DNA of 64,000 nt from a virus (lineage: Duplodnaviria > Caudoviricetes). Shown piece after piece: positions 29,440 to 40,084 of this stretch (positions are counted from its first letter, which is position 1; each line of letters opens with the position of its first letter). A model generated the notes under the pieces. It saw only the letters and a list, made by a program, of their open reading frames with translations. It was not told the origin of the DNA and did not search any database. Where the stretch lies: positions 32,001 to 96,000 of the IMG/VR virus record IMGVR_UViG_3300005714_000005; one strand, given 5' to 3'. A program made the translations under genes and the position numbers.

Positions 29440-29450
29440 ATAGTGGTCTT
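29425..29450 (-). terminator. Intrinsic terminator (U tract on - strand)
   Basis: AAGACCAC/GTGGTCTT stem; T run only on - strand. Confidence 0.65.
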
Positions 29451-29570
29451 CCCTAATAAAAAGCGTTAAAAAGTAATAAAAGTAGATTGAGTAAGTAGTG
29501 TGAATTATATAATACAAAGGAGAAAAATATTATATGTAAGCAAGATAGATGGAAAGTCAACTTGCTTACA
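29425..29570 (-). ncRNA. Candidate ~145-nt antisense small RNA
   Basis: Upstream - strand promoter, 10-bp 5' hairpin, UUCUCCUUU tract, intrinsic terminator with U tract; no ORF. Confidence 0.5.
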
Positions 29571-29575
29571 ATATT

Positions 29576-29605
29576 ATTATATCACACTACTCTATAATTA
29601 TGCAA
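29576..29605 (-). promoter_or_regulatory. SigmaA-type promoter for candidate sRNA
   Basis: TTGCAT-N18-(TG-n)TATAAT; TATAATAATATTGTAAG is identical to the dnaE promoter; AT-rich upstream tract. Confidence 0.6.
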
Positions 29606-29659
29606 CATAAATTAAATAAAATTAATAAATTAATAAATTTTTAAAATAGAGGTGATTTC

Positions 29660-29833
29660 ATGATTAAGAAAATCGGGGCAAATCCATACGGTGTAGTTGA
29701 ATTCACTGCTTCAACAGTGGCGGAAATTGACGACTTACCAAAGAATGTTGGTCAAGGAAGTTACTGCCTAGTATTGGAAAATTCAGAGGTATATATGTTT
29801 GATGAGGCAACCTCAACTTGGGGAAAATTATAG
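29660..29833 (+). CDS. Small tail-associated protein (57 aa, not in ORF track)
   Basis: RBS GAGGTG; ...DDLPKNVGQGSYCLVLENSEVYMFDE...W pattern. Confidence 0.6.
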   Translation: MIKKIGANPYGVVEFTASTVAEIDDLPKNVGQGSYCLVLENSEVYMFDEATSTWGKL

Positions 29834-29850
29834 GAAAAGAGGTGAAGTAA

Positions 29851-30459
29851 ATGGATATTGTAACTTACGCCTTATGTAAGAAAATGGCAAGTGGTAAAGG
29901 TGAAAAAGGGGATAAGGGAGATAAAGGAGATAGAGGTGAACAAGGTCTGCCTGGTAGAGATGGTGCTGATGGTGTCACTCCCAATTTACAAGTTGGTACT
30001 GTTACAACTCTACCTAGTGGTCAAAATGCTACGGTAACACAAAGTGGTACAAAGGAAGACCCAATTTTCAATTTCTCTATTCCTCGTGGAGATAAGGGAA
30101 TTTATGTTGGTGCTAAAGATACTGCACCCCCAACAGTTGATATTGTAATTGACCATTCTGACATGGGGCTATATTCTGATGAATTAGTAAATACACCTAT
30201 TGTGGGCAATACCTTAACTTTAACTACTCGTAAAAATCAAACAACCACTATGCAAAATAACACAACCATTGTATTGCCTAATGTAAATTCATTCACAGAG
30301 ATTCATCTATTCTTTAGCACAACAAGTGAATTAACATTACAATTACCTGTCGATGTTAAATGGCAAACTCAACCGACTATCGAAGCTAATAAAGTGTATG
30401 AATTTATTTTCACATATGCAACCACTTGGCTTGGAGGGGCGGTATGCTACAATGACTAA
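29851..30459 (+). CDS. Collagen-like tail accessory protein
   Basis: MDIVTYALCKK; GxKGDK collagen repeats; GVTPNL.VGTVTTL...F.IPRG module. Confidence 0.65.
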   Translation: MDIVTYALCKKMASGKGEKGDKGDKGDRGEQGLPGRDGADGVTPNLQVGTVTTLPSGQNATVTQSGTKEDPIFNFSIPRGDKGIYVGAKDTAPPTVDIVIDHSDMGLYSDELVNTPIVGNTLTLTTRKNQTTTMQNNTTIVLPNVNSFTEIHLFFSTTSELTLQLPVDVKWQTQPTIEANKVYEFIFTYATTWLGGAVCYND

Positions 30460-31111
30460 GAAATTATTAATGAATAATTATTCTGAAAATGGATTAATGC
30501 CTGTCATGGATGGTTTGATTTGTTGGTTAGATGGTAGAGATGGTGAATTTGGTGATACCGTATGGGTAGATAGAAGTGGAAATGGGAATGACGCAACAGT
30601 GACAAACTGTGTGTGGACTGGGAAAGCTCTGAAAACAACTTCAGATTTAAGTGAATTTTTAGTTAGTAAAGAGATGATTAGTGGCGACAACAATCCCTAT
30701 ACATTGGAGATATATTTTTCTCGTTATGCAACAGATAGACCAAACGTAGCAGAGAATGTCATAATGGCTAATTCAGTAAAAGAATGGGGTTACTCAACCT
30801 CTCTTTATATTCGAGGGAATAAGTTGTTTTATGACGTAGGAAAACAAACTTTGGTTGATAACTCCGAGTTTAACAAGCCTTATCAAGTAGCTATTAGCAA
30901 AGTCCACCTCACAAGCAGGAAATCATTTGTTAATGGCAACTTTATTCAAGAGCGAGATGGATTCGTTGTAAAAGGGATTTCATTTTTGGGAAATTGGGAC
31001 TCAACAAAAGCAAAATGCGATTATTACTCAATTAGATTATACAATCGTGCCTTGACAGAAGAAGAAATCCAACAAAATTACCTATACGAACAATCAATTG
31101 AAAGAGGGTGA
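30452..31111 (+). CDS. LamG / concanavalin A-like domain protein
   Basis: GLICWLDG...W.DRSGNGN and IRLYNRALTEEEIQQNY motifs. Confidence 0.7.
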   Translation: MTKKLLMNNYSENGLMPVMDGLICWLDGRDGEFGDTVWVDRSGNGNDATVTNCVWTGKALKTTSDLSEFLVSKEMISGDNNPYTLEIYFSRYATDRPNVAENVIMANSVKEWGYSTSLYIRGNKLFYDVGKQTLVDNSEFNKPYQVAISKVHLTSRKSFVNGNFIQERDGFVVKGISFLGNWDSTKAKCDYYSIRLYNRALTEEEIQQNYLYEQSIERG

Positions 31112-31117
31112 TAACAA

Positions 31118-31666
31118 ATGTACGCTAAATTAGAAAATAACAAATTAACTTATGCACCAAAAAATTATAAAACTCCTACTCATTTAATCCTAAACTTTAA
31201 TAGTAATATTACACTTATGGAGGAACATGGATTTAAGGAAGTAGTGGATATTAAACCTGAATATGATAACTCTACCCACTATTTGTCGGTAGATAGCTAT
31301 ACAGAAGATGAAAATTCTATCACAATCAACTACACAATTAAAGATATTGAGCCTATTATTCAAGAGCCAACTTTAGAGGATAGAGTCTCACAATTAGAAA
31401 CCAAAACCAAAGAGCAAGAAGTTGAAATTGAAATGAATCAAGATGCAATTAATTTCCTACTATTCCAAGCATTAGGAGTTGAGGGTAAACAAACGAAAGG
31501 GGCGAATACAATGGCAGCCTATTTAGCAAATCAAATTCTTAAAGGTAAATTATCATATGAATTAGTAGTTAAACGATACCCTGAGTTTAAAGAGGATATT
31601 GATACAATCTTAATCCTTGAAGGGCGAGAAGATTTAATTAAAGAGGAAAATTTAATGAAGCGATAA
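31118..31666 (+). CDS. Tail accessory protein (possible internal start at 31511)
   Basis: MYAKLENNKLTYAP N-terminus; C-terminal MAAYLANQILKGKL..Y domain preceded by its own SD. Confidence 0.55.
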   Translation: MYAKLENNKLTYAPKNYKTPTHLILNFNSNITLMEEHGFKEVVDIKPEYDNSTHYLSVDSYTEDENSITINYTIKDIEPIIQEPTLEDRVSQLETKTKEQEVEIEMNQDAINFLLFQALGVEGKQTKGANTMAAYLANQILKGKLSYELVVKRYPEFKEDIDTILILEGREDLIKEENLMKR

Positions 31667-31708
31667 TTCAATAGACATACCTTAAAGCAAGAAAGGAGGA
31701 ATTTCTAT

Positions 31709-33655
31709 ATGTCTATTTATGTAAGAGATGAACATGGCGTGTTACAAGCTCTGAAAATCCCTGCATACAAGGGTGAAAAAGGGGAGGCAGGGGTAACACC
31801 TAATCTTACGATTGGGAATGTTACAACCCTACCTTATGACCAACAAGCCACTGTTGTAATCAGAGGGGATAAGGAAAATCCTATCATTGACTTTGGTATT
31901 CCTAAAGGTCAAGATGGAACTGGAGTTGGGGGAAATAATGTCTTTGATACAGACATTCAGTTCGTTCCTGACCCAATTAAGCAAATTGCAGAAACACCTA
32001 ATGGAACTCCAATTGGTTTCATTATGGATAGATACGCTCGTGTTGAAGCCTACAAATCAATTAAGAGAATAGGTGTCCAAGTGCGAGGATTTGATGGGCA
32101 AAATACTATTGCTTCAAATGTTAAAGCATTTGCAATTAACGCAGATACTCATGAGGTTATGGAGTTATTACATGACCAAACAGGAACAACCCCTATTGAA
32201 TTAATTGATGGTAAAACATTTGCCATGATTAATGTAAACAAAACTTATAATGTCAATACTGTCTTTGCTTTCGGTATTTCTCGTTCAGGGAGCTATGGAA
32301 ATGGTAGTGGTTTAGCAGTACAAGAAGGAACGAATAAAAACTTAATGGCTTCTGCCAATGCCCCAACAGTAGGGACAAGATTAGCAGAATGGACAAGTTC
32401 AAATTGGACTATGGGTGTATATTTTGAATTTAATTCAACAATGGCAGGTAGCTTAACGCAAGAGGTTGCTAATGAGGTTGCTAAAATCAACAACTCAACC
32501 GAAGAATATGCACTATTCAGTACAGCTAGGGGTGACTTTGATAACTCAACTGCTTTTCGTATTCCTGCTATTGTAGTTACGCCTAAAGGTACGATTATTG
32601 CTGCATCTGACATCAGACGTAAAACTGCATTTGACCAATCGTTAATTGACAATGGTATCTCACGTTCAACAGACGGAGGTAAAACATGGACTCAAAAAGT
32701 TGTTATGAGAAATAGTGGAGTTAGTGACTGGTCTCGTGCAATGGACTCTACTATGCTATCTGCTAAGAATGGTGATGTTTATATCTTGTGTGGTGCTTGG
32801 GATAGTAATCGTGGCAATTGGGAAACATCAACTTCAACACCTGACCCTGATTGGAAAGTACGATTAGCAAAGTCTACTGATGATGGAGTAACATGGACTG
32901 AAACTGATATTTCAAGAACGACTTTAAACCAACCACAAGATACAGTATCTTGGTTAGGTGGAGTTGGTACAGGTATTGAAATGTCAGACGGTACATTAGT
33001 ATTCCCAATCCAAATATGTAGACGAGACGGAAATGCAAACTATGTAACTGCGGGTATTATCTACTCTAAAGACAATGGGGCAACATGGACTATGAGTGCA
33101 AGTTTTACACCTCGTAATAACCGCATCTCAGAAAACATGGTGGCAGAAGTTGAAAATGGCATGTTGATATTAACTGGTCGGAATGAGTCAAGTGGAGTTC
33201 GTCCTGCTTACTACACAAGAGATTTAGGTGCTACATGGCAAACTCATAGCTTTATGCACAATTTAATCCATACCAATGCTCGTCCATGTCAAGGTTCATT
33301 CATTACGTTTGATACTTTAGGTGGTCGTAGAGTTGGATTAGTATCAACACCGACTTCGGGTGGAGGAACTCGTAGAGATTTAGGTGTTACCCTAATTGAC
33401 TTCAATGGTCAAAAGACTAAATTGCTAAAAGTATTCTTCCCAACACCATATACAGGTGGGGGTTATTCTTCACTTGCAACAGGATTCCGTAATGGGAAAC
33501 GAATCTTAGTGGTAGCCTATGAAGCACAAGGTCAAATTCATTATCAAGATTTAACGTATTTATTAACCGACATTGAAATGCTTACTAATGGCAATGTAAA
33601 TTTAACAATAGTAACAAATGACGAAATTGACACAATTATTGGTGCATTAAATTAG
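31709..33655 (+). CDS. Tail-anchored exo-alpha-sialidase (GH33)
   Basis: FRIP motif; four Asp boxes (SRSTDGGKTW, KSTDDGVTW, YSKDNGATW, TRDLGATW); RAMDS, WLGGVG, SEN, CQGS, GGGYS motifs; N-terminal collagen/anchor module. Confidence 0.85.
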   Translation: MSIYVRDEHGVLQALKIPAYKGEKGEAGVTPNLTIGNVTTLPYDQQATVVIRGDKENPIIDFGIPKGQDGTGVGGNNVFDTDIQFVPDPIKQIAETPNGTPIGFIMDRYARVEAYKSIKRIGVQVRGFDGQNTIASNVKAFAINADTHEVMELLHDQTGTTPIELIDGKTFAMINVNKTYNVNTVFAFGISRSGSYGNGSGLAVQEGTNKNLMASANAPTVGTRLAEWTSSNWTMGVYFEFNSTMAGSLTQEVANEVAKINNSTEEYALFSTARGDFDNSTAFRIPAIVVTPKGTIIAASDIRRKTAFDQSLIDNGISRSTDGGKTWTQKVVMRNSGVSDWSRAMDSTMLSAKNGDVYILCGAWDSNRGNWETSTSTPDPDWKVRLAKSTDDGVTWTETDISRTTLNQPQDTVSWLGGVGTGIEMSDGTLVFPIQICRRDGNANYVTAGIIYSKDNGATWTMSASFTPRNNRISENMVAEVENGMLILTGRNESSGVRPAYYTRDLGATWQTHSFMHNLIHTNARPCQGSFITFDTLGGRRVGLVSTPTSGGGTRRDLGVTLIDFNGQKTKLLKVFFPTPYTGGGYSSLATGFRNGKRILVVAYEAQGQIHYQDLTYLLTDIEMLTNGNVNLTIVTNDEIDTIIGALN

Positions 33656-33668
33656 GAGGACGATATTC

Positions 33669-34823
33669 ATGAATAACAAATTTATCAACGGAGAAAAATT
33701 ACAATATGCTTTCACTCAATTATGGGCTAAAATGAAAAACACATTTGCCCAAAAGAATGGGGAAAATACATTCACTAAGAAAAATACTTTTGACGAAGCT
33801 GTTATGATTAAACGTGAATCTATGTATATTCATAGTCCAATTAACAACAAGCCTGCCACATTAACAGGAATGCAAAAACTTGCAGGGTATCGTGGTTATA
33901 CTTCACACTCTAACGGAAATAACGGTTATGTAAAATCTGTTAAAGTTCGAGTTAAAGATGACTCTACTGTAGGACATACACTTCGTTATATTGATTTATG
34001 GGCGGTAGAGAAAAAAGATAATTTGGCACAAGACGTTATTGTTGGTAAAATGTATGATTCTTCAGTAACTTGGCTAGCTGTAAAGGAAGAAGAAGGATTT
34101 GGTAAATACGTTGAAATCTTCGTTAATCGCAAATTCGAGAATGAAACATATTTCTTAGTTGAGCATAGCAATAGTGTTACGTATACAAAACCAACTGACG
34201 AAGATGATAATGACATTGTTTATGCACGAAAAGGTACAGTTCCTGAAGTGGGCACTTCAGGTCTTACATCAGAAAGTAAGCGTTATTTATTACAATATGG
34301 TTTAGTTGGAGAAAGCATGAACATTGCTCGTGAGTTAGAAAAAATCTCTAATGGTACTGGGAAACTTGTTTCAAGTGTCAATACTATTAAACCAAACGAT
34401 AAAGGTGATGTTACTGTTGCACCAAAAGACATTCCTGGTTTATTAAGCGACAATGGTAAAATCCACCCTACTCTTGTTCCTGATGTTGCAATTACAAAAG
34501 TTACGGTGGTCGATACAGAGAAAGAAGCTATGGAACTTAGCTCAAGTATCGGGGATATTGTAATCCGCAATGACTTGAATGGTGAATCTTATATCTGTAA
34601 GAATCCACAAGGAGGCACATTCGCAGAACGTTTCATTCGTGTAGGTAGTGCAAGTGATGCAGTTAAAACAATCAACAATCAAGCAGCCAGTGCAGGTAAC
34701 GTTGATTTAGGATTAAAAGCAACTACAACTCAACTTGAATTAACTGTAAATAGCCAAACTGTCGCTACTTTACCTATTATCACAGACCAAGAAGTAAACA
34801 ACATTATCAACGGTCTTAACTAA
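33669..34823 (+). CDS. Tail accessory fibre protein
   Basis: VSSVN..GDVTV, GKIHPTLVP and GDIVIRND fibre motifs. Confidence 0.6.
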   Translation: MNNKFINGEKLQYAFTQLWAKMKNTFAQKNGENTFTKKNTFDEAVMIKRESMYIHSPINNKPATLTGMQKLAGYRGYTSHSNGNNGYVKSVKVRVKDDSTVGHTLRYIDLWAVEKKDNLAQDVIVGKMYDSSVTWLAVKEEEGFGKYVEIFVNRKFENETYFLVEHSNSVTYTKPTDEDDNDIVYARKGTVPEVGTSGLTSESKRYLLQYGLVGESMNIARELEKISNGTGKLVSSVNTIKPNDKGDVTVAPKDIPGLLSDNGKIHPTLVPDVAITKVTVVDTEKEAMELSSSIGDIVIRNDLNGESYICKNPQGGTFAERFIRVGSASDAVKTINNQAASAGNVDLGLKATTTQLELTVNSQTVATLPIITDQEVNNIINGLN

Positions 34824-34869
34824 TTTTAAATAATATCTAAGAACAAAAATATAAAAGGGAGGAAACGGA

Positions 34870-36495
34870 ATGTCTATCGTAGATAAGTCACATCTTCAAG
34901 ATGTGGCTTTAGGTATTTGGAATAAAATCCAAATGAAATTAAATGCTTATGTCCATAAGACAAAGGAGAACGTAGTCGTAGGTAAGACTGTGCTATTCGA
35001 TGGGTACATATCAGGTAATGTCCTAGCTACTTTAAATAATCCAAAAGCAACAGGCTACATTAAAACTGACTCAGCTTTCTTTGTCTGCGAACAATTATTA
35101 GTGTCTGCCAACCAAAAGGTTGGTCAGATTACTATTGGAATTGTCGACAGTAAACAAGTTGGTGATATTGTCACAGGAGTAAACATTGGAGTGGTTAGAC
35201 GCTCCGATAAAAAAGTTTTAGAATATCTAATGCGAAATGGCGTTGGTGTTGCTCATAAGAATACGATAAGCGATTTAGGTTGCGATAGAGCAATTACAAT
35301 CAACGTTGATAAATCATGGTCAGATGACGTTTACCTAATGGTTGGTGCTAATGGGGCATTATGGGGAGATCGTGATAACAACTATGGCGGAGATGCTCTT
35401 GGTGGTCTAACATTACCTGCTGTGGGTAGTACAATTCAACTTAACCGAAATGGTAACTATGTTGGTAAAGCTATTATTCATGGTGATGGAATTGCATTGC
35501 GAGATTTAGCAAACTCTAGTGTCAATGGAGTTACAAAAGATGAGTTTAATCAATTCAAGGGTGAAAATCAACAAGCTCATCAAACAATGACAAATAGTAT
35601 CAATAGTGCTAATAGCAATATCACATCACAAGGTCAACGTATTGGTAGCTTGGAGAGTGGTACTGCTAAATTAAATGCTCGCAATAGATTTACTGCTCAA
35701 AATACTTTTATGGAAAGAAATCCTATTGTTGAGAAATATGCTTCAATCAAAGATATTTTTACAGCAGATGGAGTAGACTCATTCTTAGCGGGTGGGCTAT
35801 ACTGTTGTAATCCACAGGCGGGTATTACAGATTATAACGCCCATATTTCTGCAATAGTTGTTCCTATTAAAGATTCACAACCAGGAGATACAGTTGAGGC
35901 TTCATACTTCACAGTTAATGCTACTACTAGACAATTAACAAGTGATATTCTTGAAGCTAAAACACATACAGTTTTAGATGTGCAGTATAAAGGTGAATAT
36001 TGTATTGCTCTTAATGTAGACAGAACTTTTAACTATCCTGTTTCTTTCGGAATCCGAGTTATGGATAAAGTTTTAGTAGGTAGACGAATTGGTATGTTGA
36101 AACAAGATTTACCAAACCAAGTCAACAACAATGCTTGGAGTTATTATATCAAGCCTACAAATGGACAATACATAGGAAATTATAATGCAAAGTTTACAGT
36201 TCCTTATATGATTGCTCGAAGAATTAGCTCAGAACTTATTACCAAATATGACATCAACATCATGAATAATCCTACAGGTGAGATTAAATTCTTAGCTTAT
36301 GATGCAGGTGAAGTTACAGAAATCAATGGGCGTACTTGGTTGAGATGTGATGGGCAATCAGTGCCAACTTCGGAGTATAATGAATTATGTAAAGCTATTC
36401 AACCTGTATCAGAAGATGGTTCAGAAGTATCGGTAGATTTCAAATTACCAAGTAATAATTCACCTGTTGGGTATACTTACATTTGTGCTAAATAA
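34870..36495 (+). CDS. Tail fibre protein with C-terminal tail-collar domain
   Basis: PTGEI...WLRCDGQSV..SEY.EL...FKLP collar motif; two internal beta domains. Confidence 0.7.
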   Translation: MSIVDKSHLQDVALGIWNKIQMKLNAYVHKTKENVVVGKTVLFDGYISGNVLATLNNPKATGYIKTDSAFFVCEQLLVSANQKVGQITIGIVDSKQVGDIVTGVNIGVVRRSDKKVLEYLMRNGVGVAHKNTISDLGCDRAITINVDKSWSDDVYLMVGANGALWGDRDNNYGGDALGGLTLPAVGSTIQLNRNGNYVGKAIIHGDGIALRDLANSSVNGVTKDEFNQFKGENQQAHQTMTNSINSANSNITSQGQRIGSLESGTAKLNARNRFTAQNTFMERNPIVEKYASIKDIFTADGVDSFLAGGLYCCNPQAGITDYNAHISAIVVPIKDSQPGDTVEASYFTVNATTRQLTSDILEAKTHTVLDVQYKGEYCIALNVDRTFNYPVSFGIRVMDKVLVGRRIGMLKQDLPNQVNNNAWSYYIKPTNGQYIGNYNAKFTVPYMIARRISSELITKYDINIMNNPTGEIKFLAYDAGEVTEINGRTWLRCDGQSVPTSEYNELCKAIQPVSEDGSEVSVDFKLPSNNSPVGYTYICAK

Positions 36496-36521
36496 GATTT
36501 CATTAGCAAGGGGGTGAGATA

Positions 36522-37160
36522 ATGAAACTTACTCAAGAACAATATGAACTTTGCACATTTCTGAATGATTGCGTTTATAATGAATTGGCTTATCCACCTA
36601 CTATGAATATGACTAATCGTATTGTTAAAGGAAGTGGTTTGAGGGTTGAGATTTTTGACTTCCCTCAGACCACTTTTGTTATATTCTGTGGTACGAATAG
36701 AGGTAGTTGGAGAGATTGGCTAACCAATTTCAAAGTTGGATTTGGTTTTGGATTAGTACCTAACCAACATAGACAAGCATTAGCAATCGTTCGTGATGAA
36801 TTATGCAAAGCTCAATTTAAAGGCAAAGATTTAATTGTCGCAGGACACTCATTGGGTTCAGGACTGATGGAGTATAGTATTGCCAACTTAGGTAATACAG
36901 AATACGACAACTATATAGGAATTGGGTACAATGGTTGTGGAGTTAAACATTTGGGTGGATATGCAAAAGAGGGGAAAATTCTTAATATCGTCACAACTCG
37001 TGATATTCTAAACGGTATTACTAGCAAATTGCCAGGAAAGAAATATATGAAACACTATGGGGAAATCCAATATGTTAAAGATAATAGCACTTGGAATCCT
37101 ATCAAGTCACACTCTAACTTTTCAGTTATGATGGACTATAAAATTAACGAAGGAGAATGA
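36522..37160 (+). CDS. Alpha/beta hydrolase (lipase class 3-like)
   Basis: FCGT...DWLTN lid, GHSLG nucleophile elbow, D (RDIL) and H (SHS) candidates. Confidence 0.75.
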   Translation: MKLTQEQYELCTFLNDCVYNELAYPPTMNMTNRIVKGSGLRVEIFDFPQTTFVIFCGTNRGSWRDWLTNFKVGFGFGLVPNQHRQALAIVRDELCKAQFKGKDLIVAGHSLGSGLMEYSIANLGNTEYDNYIGIGYNGCGVKHLGGYAKEGKILNIVTTRDILNGITSKLPGKKYMKHYGEIQYVKDNSTWNPIKSHSNFSVMMDYKINEGE

Positions 37161-37163
37161 AAT

Positions 37164-37751
37164 ATGAAAGAAGTATGGAAAGATATTTACTATACAGATG
37201 AAGTAACGGAAGAAATAATTGATTTTCGTGGATATTATCAAATTAGTAATTTGGGAAGAGTTAAAAGTTTGGCAAGAGTTCACTTTAGAAAAAATGGTGT
37301 AAAATTGTCAATACGAGAGAAAGTAATTAGCCCAGGCGATAATGGTCATGGCTACCTATTTGTCACTCTCTATAATGGCGAAAGCAAAAAGAGATTCTAT
37401 GTTCATAGGTTGGTTGGGCAAATGTTTCTCCAAAAAGAAGAGGGTAAAATCTATATAGACCATATTGATACCAATAGAACTAATAATTGTGTTGAGAATT
37501 TAAGATGGTGTACACAAAAAGAAAATGCAAACAATAGCCTCACGTTAAAACGCAATAGCGACTCAAAAGACAAAACTAGAGTTATTGCCATAAACGAAAA
37601 AGACTGCAAAGTTATAATGTTAAAGAGTATATCTGACGGAAAGAAAATCGGCTTTGACAAGGCAGCTATTTGGCGTTGTTGCAACGGAAAACAAAAGGAA
37701 CATTTGGGTTACAAATTTCAATATGTTGAGAAAAGAGGAATGATAGCATGA
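37164..37751 (+). CDS. Free-standing NUMOD4-HNH endonuclease
   Basis: EVWKDI...YQISNLGRVKS; VHRLV...IDHIDTNRTNN; no intron core flanking it. Confidence 0.85.
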   Translation: MKEVWKDIYYTDEVTEEIIDFRGYYQISNLGRVKSLARVHFRKNGVKLSIREKVISPGDNGHGYLFVTLYNGESKKRFYVHRLVGQMFLQKEEGKIYIDHIDTNRTNNCVENLRWCTQKENANNSLTLKRNSDSKDKTRVIAINEKDCKVIMLKSISDGKKIGFDKAAIWRCCNGKQKEHLGYKFQYVEKRGMIA

Positions 37752-38482
37752 CTTACATATTTAAACAAGATTTAGTACCAAGTAACAAATATTCAATCAA
37801 AGCTCCTTATTCTATGATACCACAATATATCACAATCCACAACACTTCAAACTCTGCACCCGCACAAAACGAAATTAACTACATGAAAAACAATAATAAC
37901 CAAGTTTCTTATCACGTATGTATAGATGAGAAATACGTTATCCAAGCAATCCCTTTTAATCGTAATGCATGGCACGCAGGAGATGGTGCTTATGGTAGTG
38001 GAAATCGCAAATCTATCGGCATTGAAATTGCACGTTCGACTGGCGACATTAATCTATTTAAACAGGCAGAAGCTAACTGTGCTAAATATGTAGCTACTCT
38101 ATTAAAACAATATGGTTGGGGAATTGACCGAGTTAAACGTCATAAAGACTGGTCTGGCAAATACTGTCCTCACAAAACGATGGATTTAGGTTGGGATAGA
38201 TTTTTAAATATGATTAAAGCAGAATTGAATGCTTTAAACAAACTTACTCAACCAACACCTAGCAAACCAACACAAGACACTTCATTCAAAGTTAAGGTTA
38301 TTGCTAAAGAATTAAATGTGCGTAAATCTGCTTCATTTGATAGTGCAGTAGTGACTACTGTTAAGAAAGGTGAAGTGTACACTATTGTTGAGGTTAAGAA
38401 TGGATTAGGTTTATTGAAATCTTACAAAGACAAACGTGACGGTTGGATTTCAATACACTCTGCCTATGTGCAAAAAGTTTAA
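37748..38482 (+). CDS. Endolysin, N-acetylmuramoyl-L-alanine amidase (Amidase_2 + SH3b)
   Basis: ITIHNT, SYH, AWHAGDG, SIGIEI, HKDWSGKYCP; LNVRK...GWIS SH3b. Confidence 0.9.
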   Translation: MTYIFKQDLVPSNKYSIKAPYSMIPQYITIHNTSNSAPAQNEINYMKNNNNQVSYHVCIDEKYVIQAIPFNRNAWHAGDGAYGSGNRKSIGIEIARSTGDINLFKQAEANCAKYVATLLKQYGWGIDRVKRHKDWSGKYCPHKTMDLGWDRFLNMIKAELNALNKLTQPTPSKPTQDTSFKVKVIAKELNVRKSASFDSAVVTTVKKGEVYTIVEVKNGLGLLKSYKDKRDGWISIHSAYVQKV

Positions 38483-40038: not shown

Positions 40039-40084
40039 AAAAGGGATAGATACTTTAATTAGTGTCTATCCCTTACCTTTTTTG
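40039..40084. terminator. Bidirectional terminator where late and early arms converge
   Basis: 14-bp stem AAGGGATAGATACT/AGTGTCTATCCCTT with A/T tracts on both sides. Confidence 0.8.

Follow-up and report, generated by a model that had tools for sequence, protein, structure and literature searches.

A predicted tail fibre with a NanH-type GH33 exo-sialidase domain in a large siphovirus of Bacillota

The GH58 tailspikes of K1 phages, such as K1F endoNF and phi92 endoN92, carry a sialic-acid-cleaving propeller on a tail appendage and perform endo-cleavage of polysialic acid. Bacterial NanH enzymes of family GH33 are free proteins of about 380-400 aa that are secreted or encoded as prophage cargo; for example, NanH of Salmonella Typhimurium is encoded by the prophage Fels-1. 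Among isolated phages, GH33 is essentially absent, the only cases being this Fels-1 cargo enzyme and one faecal contig. GH33 annotations have also been tied to tail proteins of other phages, with a hypothesised role in host interaction, but they are given at the family level only and concern hosts and phage types that differ from the present one. In this work, we describe a GH33 domain that is part of a predicted tail fibre.

The window is a stretch of 64,000 nucleotides from a 105,750-bp IMG/VR record of a large uncultivated phage. The phage is a large siphovirus of Bacillota, and a Gram-positive host is indicated by the endolysin, which closes the tail module. The endolysin homologues are all metagenomic, and the relatives of the portal protein reach 30-33% identity at best. 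The whole record contains a single GH33 match, which is in ORF 31709-33655 (plus strand, 648 aa, Shine-Dalgarno sequence AGGAGG), here called the sialidase fibre. Its gene lies between the Dit/tail genes and the endolysin gene, in one plus-strand block whose end is a terminator at 40041-40074, and forms one late operon with the genes for a LamG protein and a hydrolase (Table 1). The 182-aa protein encoded just upstream has no match in Pfam or NCBIfam and may serve in fibre assembly or as an adaptor. The homing endonuclease gene, which is inserted between the lipase and endolysin genes and is missing at the same site in the relative L002, is context and lies outside the fibre set.

Table 1. Features of the tail-fibre region, in window positions
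Feature	Position	Strand	Remarks
Short fibre, 202 aa	29851..30459	+	Pfam Collagen 6e-4; tail PHROGs
Stand-alone LamG/ConA-like lectin-fold protein, 219 aa from ATG at 30452	30452..31111	+	
182-aa protein	31118..31666	+	Sole match phrog_8908 (unknown function), 3e-15, aa 132-177
Sialidase fibre, aa 1-85: conserved N-terminus, short collagen-like stretch, one fibre module	31709..31963	+	Attachment/shaft part (predicted)
Sialidase fibre, aa 86-260: orphan beta-rich domain	31964..32488	+	AF2 strands, low pLDDT 50-59
Sialidase fibre, aa 261-620: GH33 six-bladed beta-propeller, NanH-type exo-alpha-sialidase	32489..33568	+	Full catalytic set
Sialidase fibre, aa 621-648: C-terminal tail	33569..33655	+	Motif T-x-D/E-E-I/V-x-x-I-I-x-x-L-N, predicted helical
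384-aa fibre protein	33669..34823	+	One shared beta-domain copy; same C-terminal tail motif as sialidase fibre
541-aa fibre protein	34870..36495	+	Two shared beta-domain copies; C-terminal tail-collar-like motif
Class-3 lipase/Tle-like phospholipase-fold alpha/beta hydrolase, 212 aa	36522..37160	+	GHSLG motif
HNH/NUMOD4 homing endonuclease	37164..37751	+	Pfam HNH_3 7e-12, NUMOD4 9e-11
Endolysin, Amidase_2 + SH3_3	37748..38482	+	~50% identical to its counterparts in SPbeta and large Bacillus siphoviruses

The catalytic part of the sialidase fibre closely follows bacterial NanH. Pfam detects BNR_3 (3.9e-32) and BNR_2 (5.7e-15), and the solved structures matched are NanH of C. perfringens (8ub5, E 8.1e-78; also 8um0 and 9dku) and of Salmonella (2sil/3sil, 6e-55). 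Clostridial NanH enzymes are 42-47% identical to it, and Salmonella NanH is 36% identical. In an alignment with Fels-1/Salmonella NanH, all 12 catalytic and pocket residues are kept: NanH R37, D62, M99, D100, W121 and W128 correspond to R284, D309, M345, D346, W364 and W371 of the fibre, and L175, E231, R246, R309, Y342 and E361 to L416, E475, R491, R555, Y586 and E605. The Arg triad, the Tyr/Glu nucleophile pair, the Asp acid/base and the acetamido pocket are present, together with the RIP motif and the six-bladed propeller. The AF2 model of this domain has a pLDDT of about 80-93 and superimposes on 8ub5 with a Foldseek TMt of 0.87 (rmsd 2.2 A, 42% identity), whereas the N-terminal and middle parts are modelled with low confidence. 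An earlier, sequence-only reading had claimed an apparently complete NanH-type motif set with FRIP at 32555-32566 and four Asp boxes, of GH33 rather than the GH58 type of K1 phages. All of this is borne out: FRIP is at exactly that position (aa 283-286), and the Asp boxes are at aa 320, 389, 453 and 503. The gene is under purifying selection, with dN/dS values against the 83%-identical P0002 of L002 of 0.077 for GH33, 0.12 for the middle beta domain and 0.11 overall.

The protein differs from both groups of known enzymes. Compared with NanH, about 260 aa of fibre N-terminus and beta domain replace the signal peptide, and a tail of 28 aa extends the C-terminus; clostridial homologues begin with signal peptides at the place of the fibre N-terminus, and none was found in the phage protein. 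Compared with the GH58 tailspikes, which belong to another CAZy family, it is predicted to remove terminal residues in exo fashion and belongs to a phage of a Gram-positive host; the End_beta_propel and Peptidase_S74 chaperone domains of those tailspikes were not detected in it. Given its probable location on the virion, it would be their functional analogue.

Similar proteins recur in other phages. At least 14 diverged metagenomic fibre-type proteins (P0002-P0006, P0015-P0019, P0022-P0024 and one at the IMG/VR locus L011) combine intact GH33 catalytic residues with phage fibre or baseplate modules. Their N-terminal anchors (DUF3751/tail-collar fibre, BppU_N or phrog_18023) and domain orders differ from those of the sialidase fibre, although some share its beta domain and C-terminal motif. 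Catalytic-domain identity to it is 37-47%, except for P0002 (87%, 83% over the whole protein), and the set comprises at least 2-3 deep lineages. In L003 and L011, no further tail gene separates the fibre-type GH33 gene from the lysis genes. The fusion of a complete GH33 enzyme to a tail fibre is real here, and rare among known phages.

The sequence-only reading had also described the sialidase as fused to a tail anchor and flanked by fibres with repeated beta domains, and both statements agree with our results. Residues 22-88 are 48% identical to residues 35-101 of the short fibre (E 3e-15), and this module also matches tail PHROGs and a protein of the C. perfringens phage CPS1. At E<=1e-3, 1,947 proteins match the N-terminal part, frequently with copies in tandem. 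A number of these align from residue 1 and range from 150 to 1,198 aa, and no GH33 domain was found in ten such proteins of differing length. Since the first 80 or so residues are common to many proteins of very different lengths, they appear to be an interchangeable attachment part. The beta domain is common to three consecutive genes, as judged from transitive local-alignment similarity (z 5.6-16 against shuffles). In particular, the sialidase middle domain matches aa 300-440 of the 541-aa fibre (z 6.7) and aa 830-960 of P0015 (z 5.6); P0015 is matched by the beta domains of the 384-aa fibre (z 7.7; z 11 to P0003) and the 541-aa fibre (z 16). The C-terminal motif is found in the 384-aa fibre and in P0003, P0005, P0006 and P0015. 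Otherwise, the 384-aa fibre has weak, viral fibre-like neighbours in the Atlas, while the 541-aa fibre has a Pfam Collar hit under the cut-off (4e-4) and no match among 50,697 phage records.

These shared parts bear on whether the protein belongs to the particle at all, since the gene could instead be lysogenic-conversion cargo like Fels-1 nanH, which itself adjoins tail-fibre genes. In the prophage-like locus L004, moreover, a multidomain GH33 gene comes 3' of the endolysin gene, a cargo-like position that counts against a structural role. This explanation is nevertheless very improbable, because the present protein has a fibre N-terminus instead of a signal peptide, shares modules and the C-terminal motif with adjacent fibre genes, and is encoded on the same strand within the tail block, with tight spacing and a strong Shine-Dalgarno sequence.

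A further proposal of the sequence-only reading was an influenza-like cassette. In full, this would have the LamG protein as the sialic-acid binder, the GH33 fibre as the cleaving enzyme and the GxSxG protein as a remover of O-acetyl groups. The LamG protein itself is real: although Pfam detects no LamG domain in the window protein, PF13385 is present in many of the 76 homologues, and the fold of its AF2 model is that of a ConA-like lectin (pLDDT 89.6). The family profile matches 4qvs (2e-8) and the sialic-acid-binding CBM40 of pneumococcal NanA (4c1w, 1e-7), the model resembles the lectin-like domain of trans-sialidase, as in T. cruzi (Foldseek TMq 0.73), and one homologue also carries PF02973. 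These likenesses, and the common late operon, favour the cassette. However, the sialic acid in CBM40 is bound by Glu195, Arg197 and Arg274 (PMC4546082), and the phage family lacks the hairpin insertion with the first two and, in the profile alignment, has no Arg at the position of the third. In addition, LamG is here a separate gene and probably encodes the distal partner of the short fibre, whose stop it overlaps by 8 nt. The short fibre consists of a few collagen-like GXY triplets, one module of about 50 aa ('TPN..G.VTTL...NP...F.IP.G') and a conserved C-terminal domain of about 95 aa. This domain has 55-65% identity to its counterparts in L007 and L009, which likewise have a LamG gene next in order. 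Three other phage tail modules (L007, L009 and L010) share this order of immediately adjacent genes, with an overlap in two of them, and no sialidase was seen in any.

The hydrolase fits the cassette no better. The GxSxG motif is present as claimed, but the esterase role is not supported: the protein matches Lipase_3 (0.023) and the SA1320 family (5e-5), and its Atlas neighbours are Tle-like phospholipase clusters (feature score 0.97, structure TM 0.85). The fold is not that of an SGNH sialate O-acetylesterase, and the gene adjoins that of the endolysin. In L002, the orthologue has a PF26363 domain and lies directly 5' of the endolysin gene, and the enzyme probably assists entry or lysis and is not sialidase-specific. 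Rather than a lectin/esterase set serving the sialidase, the late operon contains the LamG protein and the lipase as components in their own right, and the cassette has hardly any probability left.

We favour, with a probability of roughly 0.6, a structural tail fibre with a distal NanH-type exo-sialidase that modifies a receptor by acting on a sialic-acid-type sugar of the bacterial host. Such a target is plausible in that NeuB-family nonulosonate synthases are common: of 14 control genomes, 9 have one, B. subtilis among them. On the other hand, an exo-acting enzyme takes off terminal residues only, unlike classical depolymerases.

The main question is the substrate. The nearest catalytic-domain relatives are secreted clostridial enzymes that act on animal glycans, so that a mucin substrate fits equally well. 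A virion sialidase could trim mucin or epithelial sialoglycans for diffusion or detachment, or supply the host bacterium with freed sialic acid; the sequence-only reading had proposed sialylated mucus or host-surface nonulosonates as the target. The retained Neu5Ac pocket agrees with this, as does the gut-type origin of related proteins (MT835944 from human faeces and Clostridium MAGs, one of them from goat rectum), and reviews propose host-independent glycan binding by phage virions (PMC9853417). Against it, the gene is placed among receptor-binding fibre genes with which it shares modules. Moreover, a search for mucin-binding Ig-like, CBM40 and CBM32 domains detected none. To our knowledge, every characterised tail-borne glycosidase targets the bacterial surface. 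Action on animal glycans is therefore rather unlikely.

Alternatively, the propeller might act on another nonulosonate (legionaminic or pseudaminic acid, or Kdn), or mainly bind with high affinity and little turnover. Legionaminic and pseudaminic acids are commoner than Neu5Ac on Gram-positive surface glycans, and the spread of NeuB-family synthases would suit them too. However, the catalytic and pocket residues of NanH are all kept, and the catalytic residues are invariant in the 14 fibre-type homologues at 37-87% identity; this invariance and the dN/dS of 0.077 favour continued hydrolysis of a Neu5Ac-like substrate, which makes this possibility doubtful. Such a substrate is the most likely one because the acetamido pocket (M99, D100, W121, W128 and L175 in NanH numbering) is intact.

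For the favoured receptor-modifying fibre, the following mechanism can be proposed. The N-terminal 85 or so residues would attach the fibre, presumably a trimer, to the tail tip; the beta domain, possibly carbohydrate-binding, would come next; and the propeller would recognise and remove a terminal sialic-acid-type nonulosonate, most probably from a surface glycan of the host bacterium (capsule, wall polysaccharide, S-layer or flagellin glycan). In this way it would make the fibre a receptor-modifying or receptor-destroying enzyme, with which the virion would bind reversibly and then strip the cap, and uncapping would give access to a secondary receptor for the adjacent fibres, which are non-enzymatic.

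The best supported reading of the sialidase gene is that it encodes a structural tail fibre with an exo-sialidase head, a protein whose virion location, activity, oligomeric state and substrate we infer.

The record that contains the window is linear and 105,750 bp long, with an estimated completeness of 68% (CheckV), and the window covers its bases 32001-96000. GC content is 31-37% across the window, and the coding strand changes from plus to minus at about 40 kb. By PHROG and Pfam matches, the portal and virion protein genes are followed by a 2,125-aa ORF where the tape measure would lie, and then by a 1,373-aa minor tail protein, a Dit-like protein and more tail proteins. After these come the fibre cluster, a homing HNH endonuclease and an endolysin with Amidase_2 and SH3_3 domains. 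Large siphoviruses that infect Brevibacillus, Bacillus, Lactococcus, Enterococcus and Clostridioides have portal proteins 30-33% identical (maximum 33%) to the one here. The endolysin shares about 50% identity with endolysins of large Bacillus siphoviruses and SPbeta; its database homologues were all metagenome proteins. On the basis of the gene order and of these portal and endolysin relatives, the element is assigned as a large uncultivated siphovirus with a predicted Gram-positive (Bacillota) host. A megablast search with the 7.3-kb fibre region against 50,697 phage records gave no matches. A gap of about 400 nt without ORFs lies immediately 5' of the fibre cluster, and a promoter and terminator scan that included this gap showed no enrichment over shuffled sequence. 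The homing endonuclease gene (HNH/NUMOD4) lies between the lipase and endolysin genes; the locus L002, which encodes the 83%-identical sialidase relative P0002, has no gene at this position. Directly 3' of its endolysin gene, L002 encodes a 507-aa metallo-beta-lactamase/beta-CASP (RNase J-like) protein; after the endolysin in the window there is no ORF of 507 aa, the next one having 275 aa.

Coordinates of the fibre-cluster features and of features at comparison loci (window positions unless a locus is named)
Feature	Position	Remark
ORF-free gap	29440-29850	
Short fibre, collagen-like (ORF 29851)	29851-30459	
LamG protein	30452-31111	from ATG 30452; overlaps the short-fibre stop by 8 nt
Short-fibre/LamG module, window	29851-31111	
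Short-fibre/LamG module, L007	L007:8181-9798	
Short-fibre/LamG module, L009	L009:8253-9663	
Short-fibre/LamG module, L010	L010:8175-9735	
Sialidase fibre	31709-33655	648 aa; ribosome-binding site AGGAGG
FRIP motif	32555-32566	
C-terminal motif, sialidase fibre	33569-33655	protein end
384-aa fibre (ORF 33669)	33669-34823	
C-terminal motif, 384-aa fibre	34740-34823	protein end
Fibre ORF 34870	34870-36495	
GxSxG hydrolase	36522-37160	
HNH/NUMOD4 homing endonuclease	37164-37751	4-nt overlap with endolysin start
507-aa RNase J-like protein	L002:6647-8170	
Fels-1 nanH	L005:2067-3215	

The sequence-only reading had described an apparently complete NanH-type motif set in this gene, and the description is borne out: in the alignment with the NanH of Salmonella phage Fels-1, every catalytic and substrate-pocket residue is kept. 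The FRIP motif lies exactly where it had been placed, and the four Asp boxes (S-x-D-x-G-x-T-W) were found at residues 320, 389, 453 and 503. The arginine triad (R284, R491, R555) and the stabilising E605 are invariant with respect to Fels-1 NanH and clostridial NanH; these correspond to R37, R246, R309 and E361 in the literature numbering of Salmonella NanH, which falls exactly on invariant alignment columns. By alignment to the same Fels-1-encoded enzyme, D309 is the acid/base and Y586/E475 the nucleophile pair, and the acetamido pocket (M345, D346, W364, W371, L416) is intact. Pfam reports BNR_3 (3.9e-32) and BNR_2, and residues 261-617 match C. perfringens NanH (8ub5) at E 8e-78 and Salmonella NanH at 6e-55. 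The AlphaFold (AF2) model of this region is a six-bladed beta-propeller with pLDDT of about 80-93, which Foldseek superposes on 8ub5 with TMt 0.87 and rmsd 2.2 A over 358 columns. Assignment to GH33 rather than to the GH58 class also stands: the Pfam matches are only of the BNR_3/BNR_2 type, the best structural matches are GH33 enzymes, and neither the endosialidase propeller PF12217 nor the Peptidase_S74 chaperone was found in the protein by Pfam. The predicted fold, the RIP motif with the Arg triad, the Tyr/Glu/Asp residues and the Asp boxes thus all agree in placing it in the NanH type of CAZy family GH33. Comparison with P0002, which comes from another sample, gives dN/dS values of 0.077 (GH33 domain) and 0.11 (whole protein) at a dS of about 0.95; judged from sequence, the domain is a selectively maintained enzyme and not the remnant of one.

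The fusion of this enzyme to a tail anchor was likewise confirmed, since its gene lies within the tail module and its N-terminal module is common to other tail fibre proteins. Clostridial homologues start with a signal peptide, in the place of which the window protein has about 260 residues. Residues 22-88 are 48% identical to part of the short fibre (E 3e-15), and also match PHROG tail families and a protein encoded downstream of the collar genes in the C. perfringens podovirus CPS1. An exhaustive search with residues 1-262 returned 1,947 proteins at E<=1e-3, nearly all of them matching only in a module of about 50 aa that follows collagen-like triplets and is often repeated many times in tandem. 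Some of the proteins align from residue 1 for about 80 residues and diverge beyond that, with total lengths of 150-1,198 aa; the GH33 domain was not found in ten of these proteins. This variation in length, together with these ten proteins, suggests that the N-terminus serves for attachment and that different heads can be joined to it.

Direct searches gave almost no relatives of the middle part (residues ~86-260), which is modelled as beta-rich at low confidence. Pfam and NCBIfam returned nothing for this domain, the 182-aa ORF, the 384-aa ORF or the LamG ORF, and the 384-aa fibre has no clear Atlas neighbour. In shuffle-controlled local alignments, the middle domain resembles residues 300-440 of ORF 34870 (z 6.7) and residues 830-960 of the homologous GH33 fibre protein P0015 (z 5.6); the 384-aa fibre resembles P0015 (z 7.7) and another such protein, P0003 (z 11); and residues 55-185 of ORF 34870 resemble P0015 (z 16). 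These pairwise links, established through P0015 and P0003, therefore define one domain type with four copies in three consecutive fibre genes, as had been supposed for fibres with repeated beta domains; with an HMM of the sialidase middle domain by itself, the matches were no more than marginal. In other phages this domain is found on either side of GH33. A role in carbohydrate binding would be a guess. The C-terminal 28 residues of the sialidase carry a motif of about 15 residues, T-x-D/E-E-I/V-x-x-I-I/L-x-x-L-N/G/T, which is predicted by the model to be helical. It ends two adjacent fibre proteins in the window and also the otherwise unrelated GH33 fibre proteins P0003, P0005, P0006 and P0015, and may be a docking, trimerisation or chaperone signal.

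The sequence-only reading had gone further and joined the sialidase to the LamG protein and the esterase as an influenza-like haemagglutinin/neuraminidase/esterase cassette. For the LamG protein, the "LamG/lectin-like" designation is right as far as the fold is concerned. Pfam does not detect LamG in the ORF itself; about 76 homologues were found, all metagenomic, and many of them carry PF13385, one also PF02973. The family profile matches the LamG S-layer protein 4qvs (2e-8), the CBM40 of pneumococcal NanA 4c1w (1e-7) and the lectin-like domain of trans-sialidase, and the model (pLDDT 89.6) has its best structural matches in the lectin-like domains of trans-sialidases (TMq up to 0.73). These homologue domains, profile matches and the confident model support a ConA/LamG-like beta-sandwich, but not the ligand set of CBM40, which in NanA numbering is Glu195/Arg197/Arg274/Tyr182 (PMC4546082). 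In one HMM alignment of the profile to 4c1w at E 1e-7, the phage family has no counterpart of the inserted hairpin with Glu195/Arg197, and its consensus residue opposite Arg274 is not Arg.

The LamG gene also has a different partner. The tail modules L007, L009 and L010 carry a LamG gene of the same family directly 3' of a collagen-like short-fibre gene, with the two genes overlapping in L007 and L009, and the fetched stretches of these three loci contain no sialidase. The C-terminal domain of the short fibre is 55-65% identical between the window and L007 and L009, and the pair of short fibre and stand-alone LamG is conserved in both siphovirus-like and myovirus-like tail modules. Since LamG is paired with the short fibre in modules whose fetched stretches show no sialidase, and the CBM40 ligands are absent by profile alignment, it belongs with ORF 29851 and not with the sialidase. 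Two further proteins, P0020 (734 aa) and P0021 (1,081 aa), have GH33 at the N-terminus and PF13385 LamG domains after it. Some relatives thus combine GH33 and LamG in one protein, although in the window they are separate and unlinked.

As for the esterase, the GxSxG hydrolase is real (GHSLG), but it is not an SGNH sialate esterase: its matches are to Lipase_3 and SA1320, both weak, and its L002 orthologue, directly 5' of the endolysin, matches PF26363, a Tle-like phospholipase family of alpha/beta-hydrolases. The Atlas places it among Tle-like phospholipase/class-3 lipase clusters (features 0.97, structure TM 0.85), its neighbours being small viral clusters of ~205-215 aa. Neither the fold nor the motif blocks of an SGNH/GDSL sialate O-acetylesterase (HEF/NanS-like) were found in the ORF. 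Its gene follows the last fibre gene of this Gram-positive phage and precedes the lysis genes. By sequence comparison nothing appears to tie the hydrolase to the sialidase, and its target may be membrane lipids, at entry or at lysis. With LamG paired to the short fibre and lacking the CBM40 ligands, and with a hydrolase that is not a sialate esterase, the three-part cassette finds no support.

Many long proteins in a large protein database share the catalytic domain. All 14 fibre-type proteins that were aligned (37-87% identity) keep the Arg triad, the Asp, the Tyr/Glu pair and the equivalent of E361. The phage anchors include a P2-type tail-collar fibre N-terminus (P0019), BppU_N (P0023) and the phrog_18023 tail fibre (P0022 and the locus L011). 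The GH33 gene comes last among the tail genes of L003 and L011, ahead of the holin and endolysin genes; in the prophage-like L004 it lies 3' of the endolysin, near the prophage end. A tblastn search with the sialidase against 50,697 isolated or deposited phage records found only Fels-1 NanH, one putative human-faecal contig and CPS1, the last by its N-terminal match alone. The Fels-1 gene, the classical Salmonella nanH, is free cargo immediately beside tail-fibre and fibre-assembly genes; it lies at the prophage end, adjoins a transposase fragment and is labelled only as a hypothetical protein in the record. No PHROG family spans the catalytic domain, and in IMG/VR a single-protein scan gave no matches and a profile scan one further locus. 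When one genome from each of 185,579 species was scanned by motif, only ordinary Clostridium NanH-type genes of 365-491 aa and longer Pasteurellaceae and Streptobacillus sialidases came up, without any fusion to phage parts.

A quick ML tree, rooted on Bacteroidota-type enzymes and with several long branches that make its details unsafe, splits the fibre-type GH33s into no fewer than two or three deep lineages. A well-supported clade among these comprises 13 long proteins, eight of them confirmed as fibre-type and the remaining five of ~850 aa. The other fibre-type proteins, the window protein with P0002 among them, are grouped without resolution with the Pasteurellaceae clade and that of the clostridial small NanH, and Fels-1 NanH branches just outside. 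Because the tree intermixes small-NanH groups with deep fibre lineages, phage fibres might be a long-standing reservoir of the small NanH of Clostridium, Salmonella (Fels-1) and Pasteurellaceae, although we regard this as quite improbable.

To our knowledge, the only well-studied phage enzymes that cleave sialic acid are the GH58 endosialidases of K1 coliphages. Our literature search brought up no functional work on GH33 exo-sialidases of phage tails. GH33 was enriched in the viral genomes of an anaerobic-digester metagenome, where a role in host interaction was suggested (PMC9377139), an archaeal virus with a potential sialidase domain is mentioned in a review (PMC13437554), and reviews of phages and mucus treat only GH58 endosialidases (PMC9853417).

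In the structural-fibre reading, the head would most probably take a terminal Neu5Ac-like residue off a glycan on the surface of the host bacterium. With this cap gone, the virion could bind reversibly and move on to a secondary receptor that the neighbouring fibres recognise. Alternatively, the virion sialidase could act on animal sialoglycans such as mucus, besides or instead of the bacterial host, with movement by binding and release. This is conceivable because the closest cellular enzymes act on animal glycans and the host is known only as Gram-positive (Bacillota), but we consider it unlikely; if true, the protein would be the first structural phage enzyme directed at an animal glycan.

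Enzymatic receptor-binding proteins decide which bacteria a phage reaches. The arrangement of GH33 on a fibre recurs on several unrelated anchors in metagenomes, and phage fibres provide a concrete means for small NanH sialidases to pass from one bacterium to another. The window protein offers a compact sialidase scaffold that is presumably multimerised by nature. For the host, an intact GH33 fibre in a phage of Gram-positive bacteria suggests that Bacillota surfaces carry sialic-acid-type caps which serve as phage receptors or shields.
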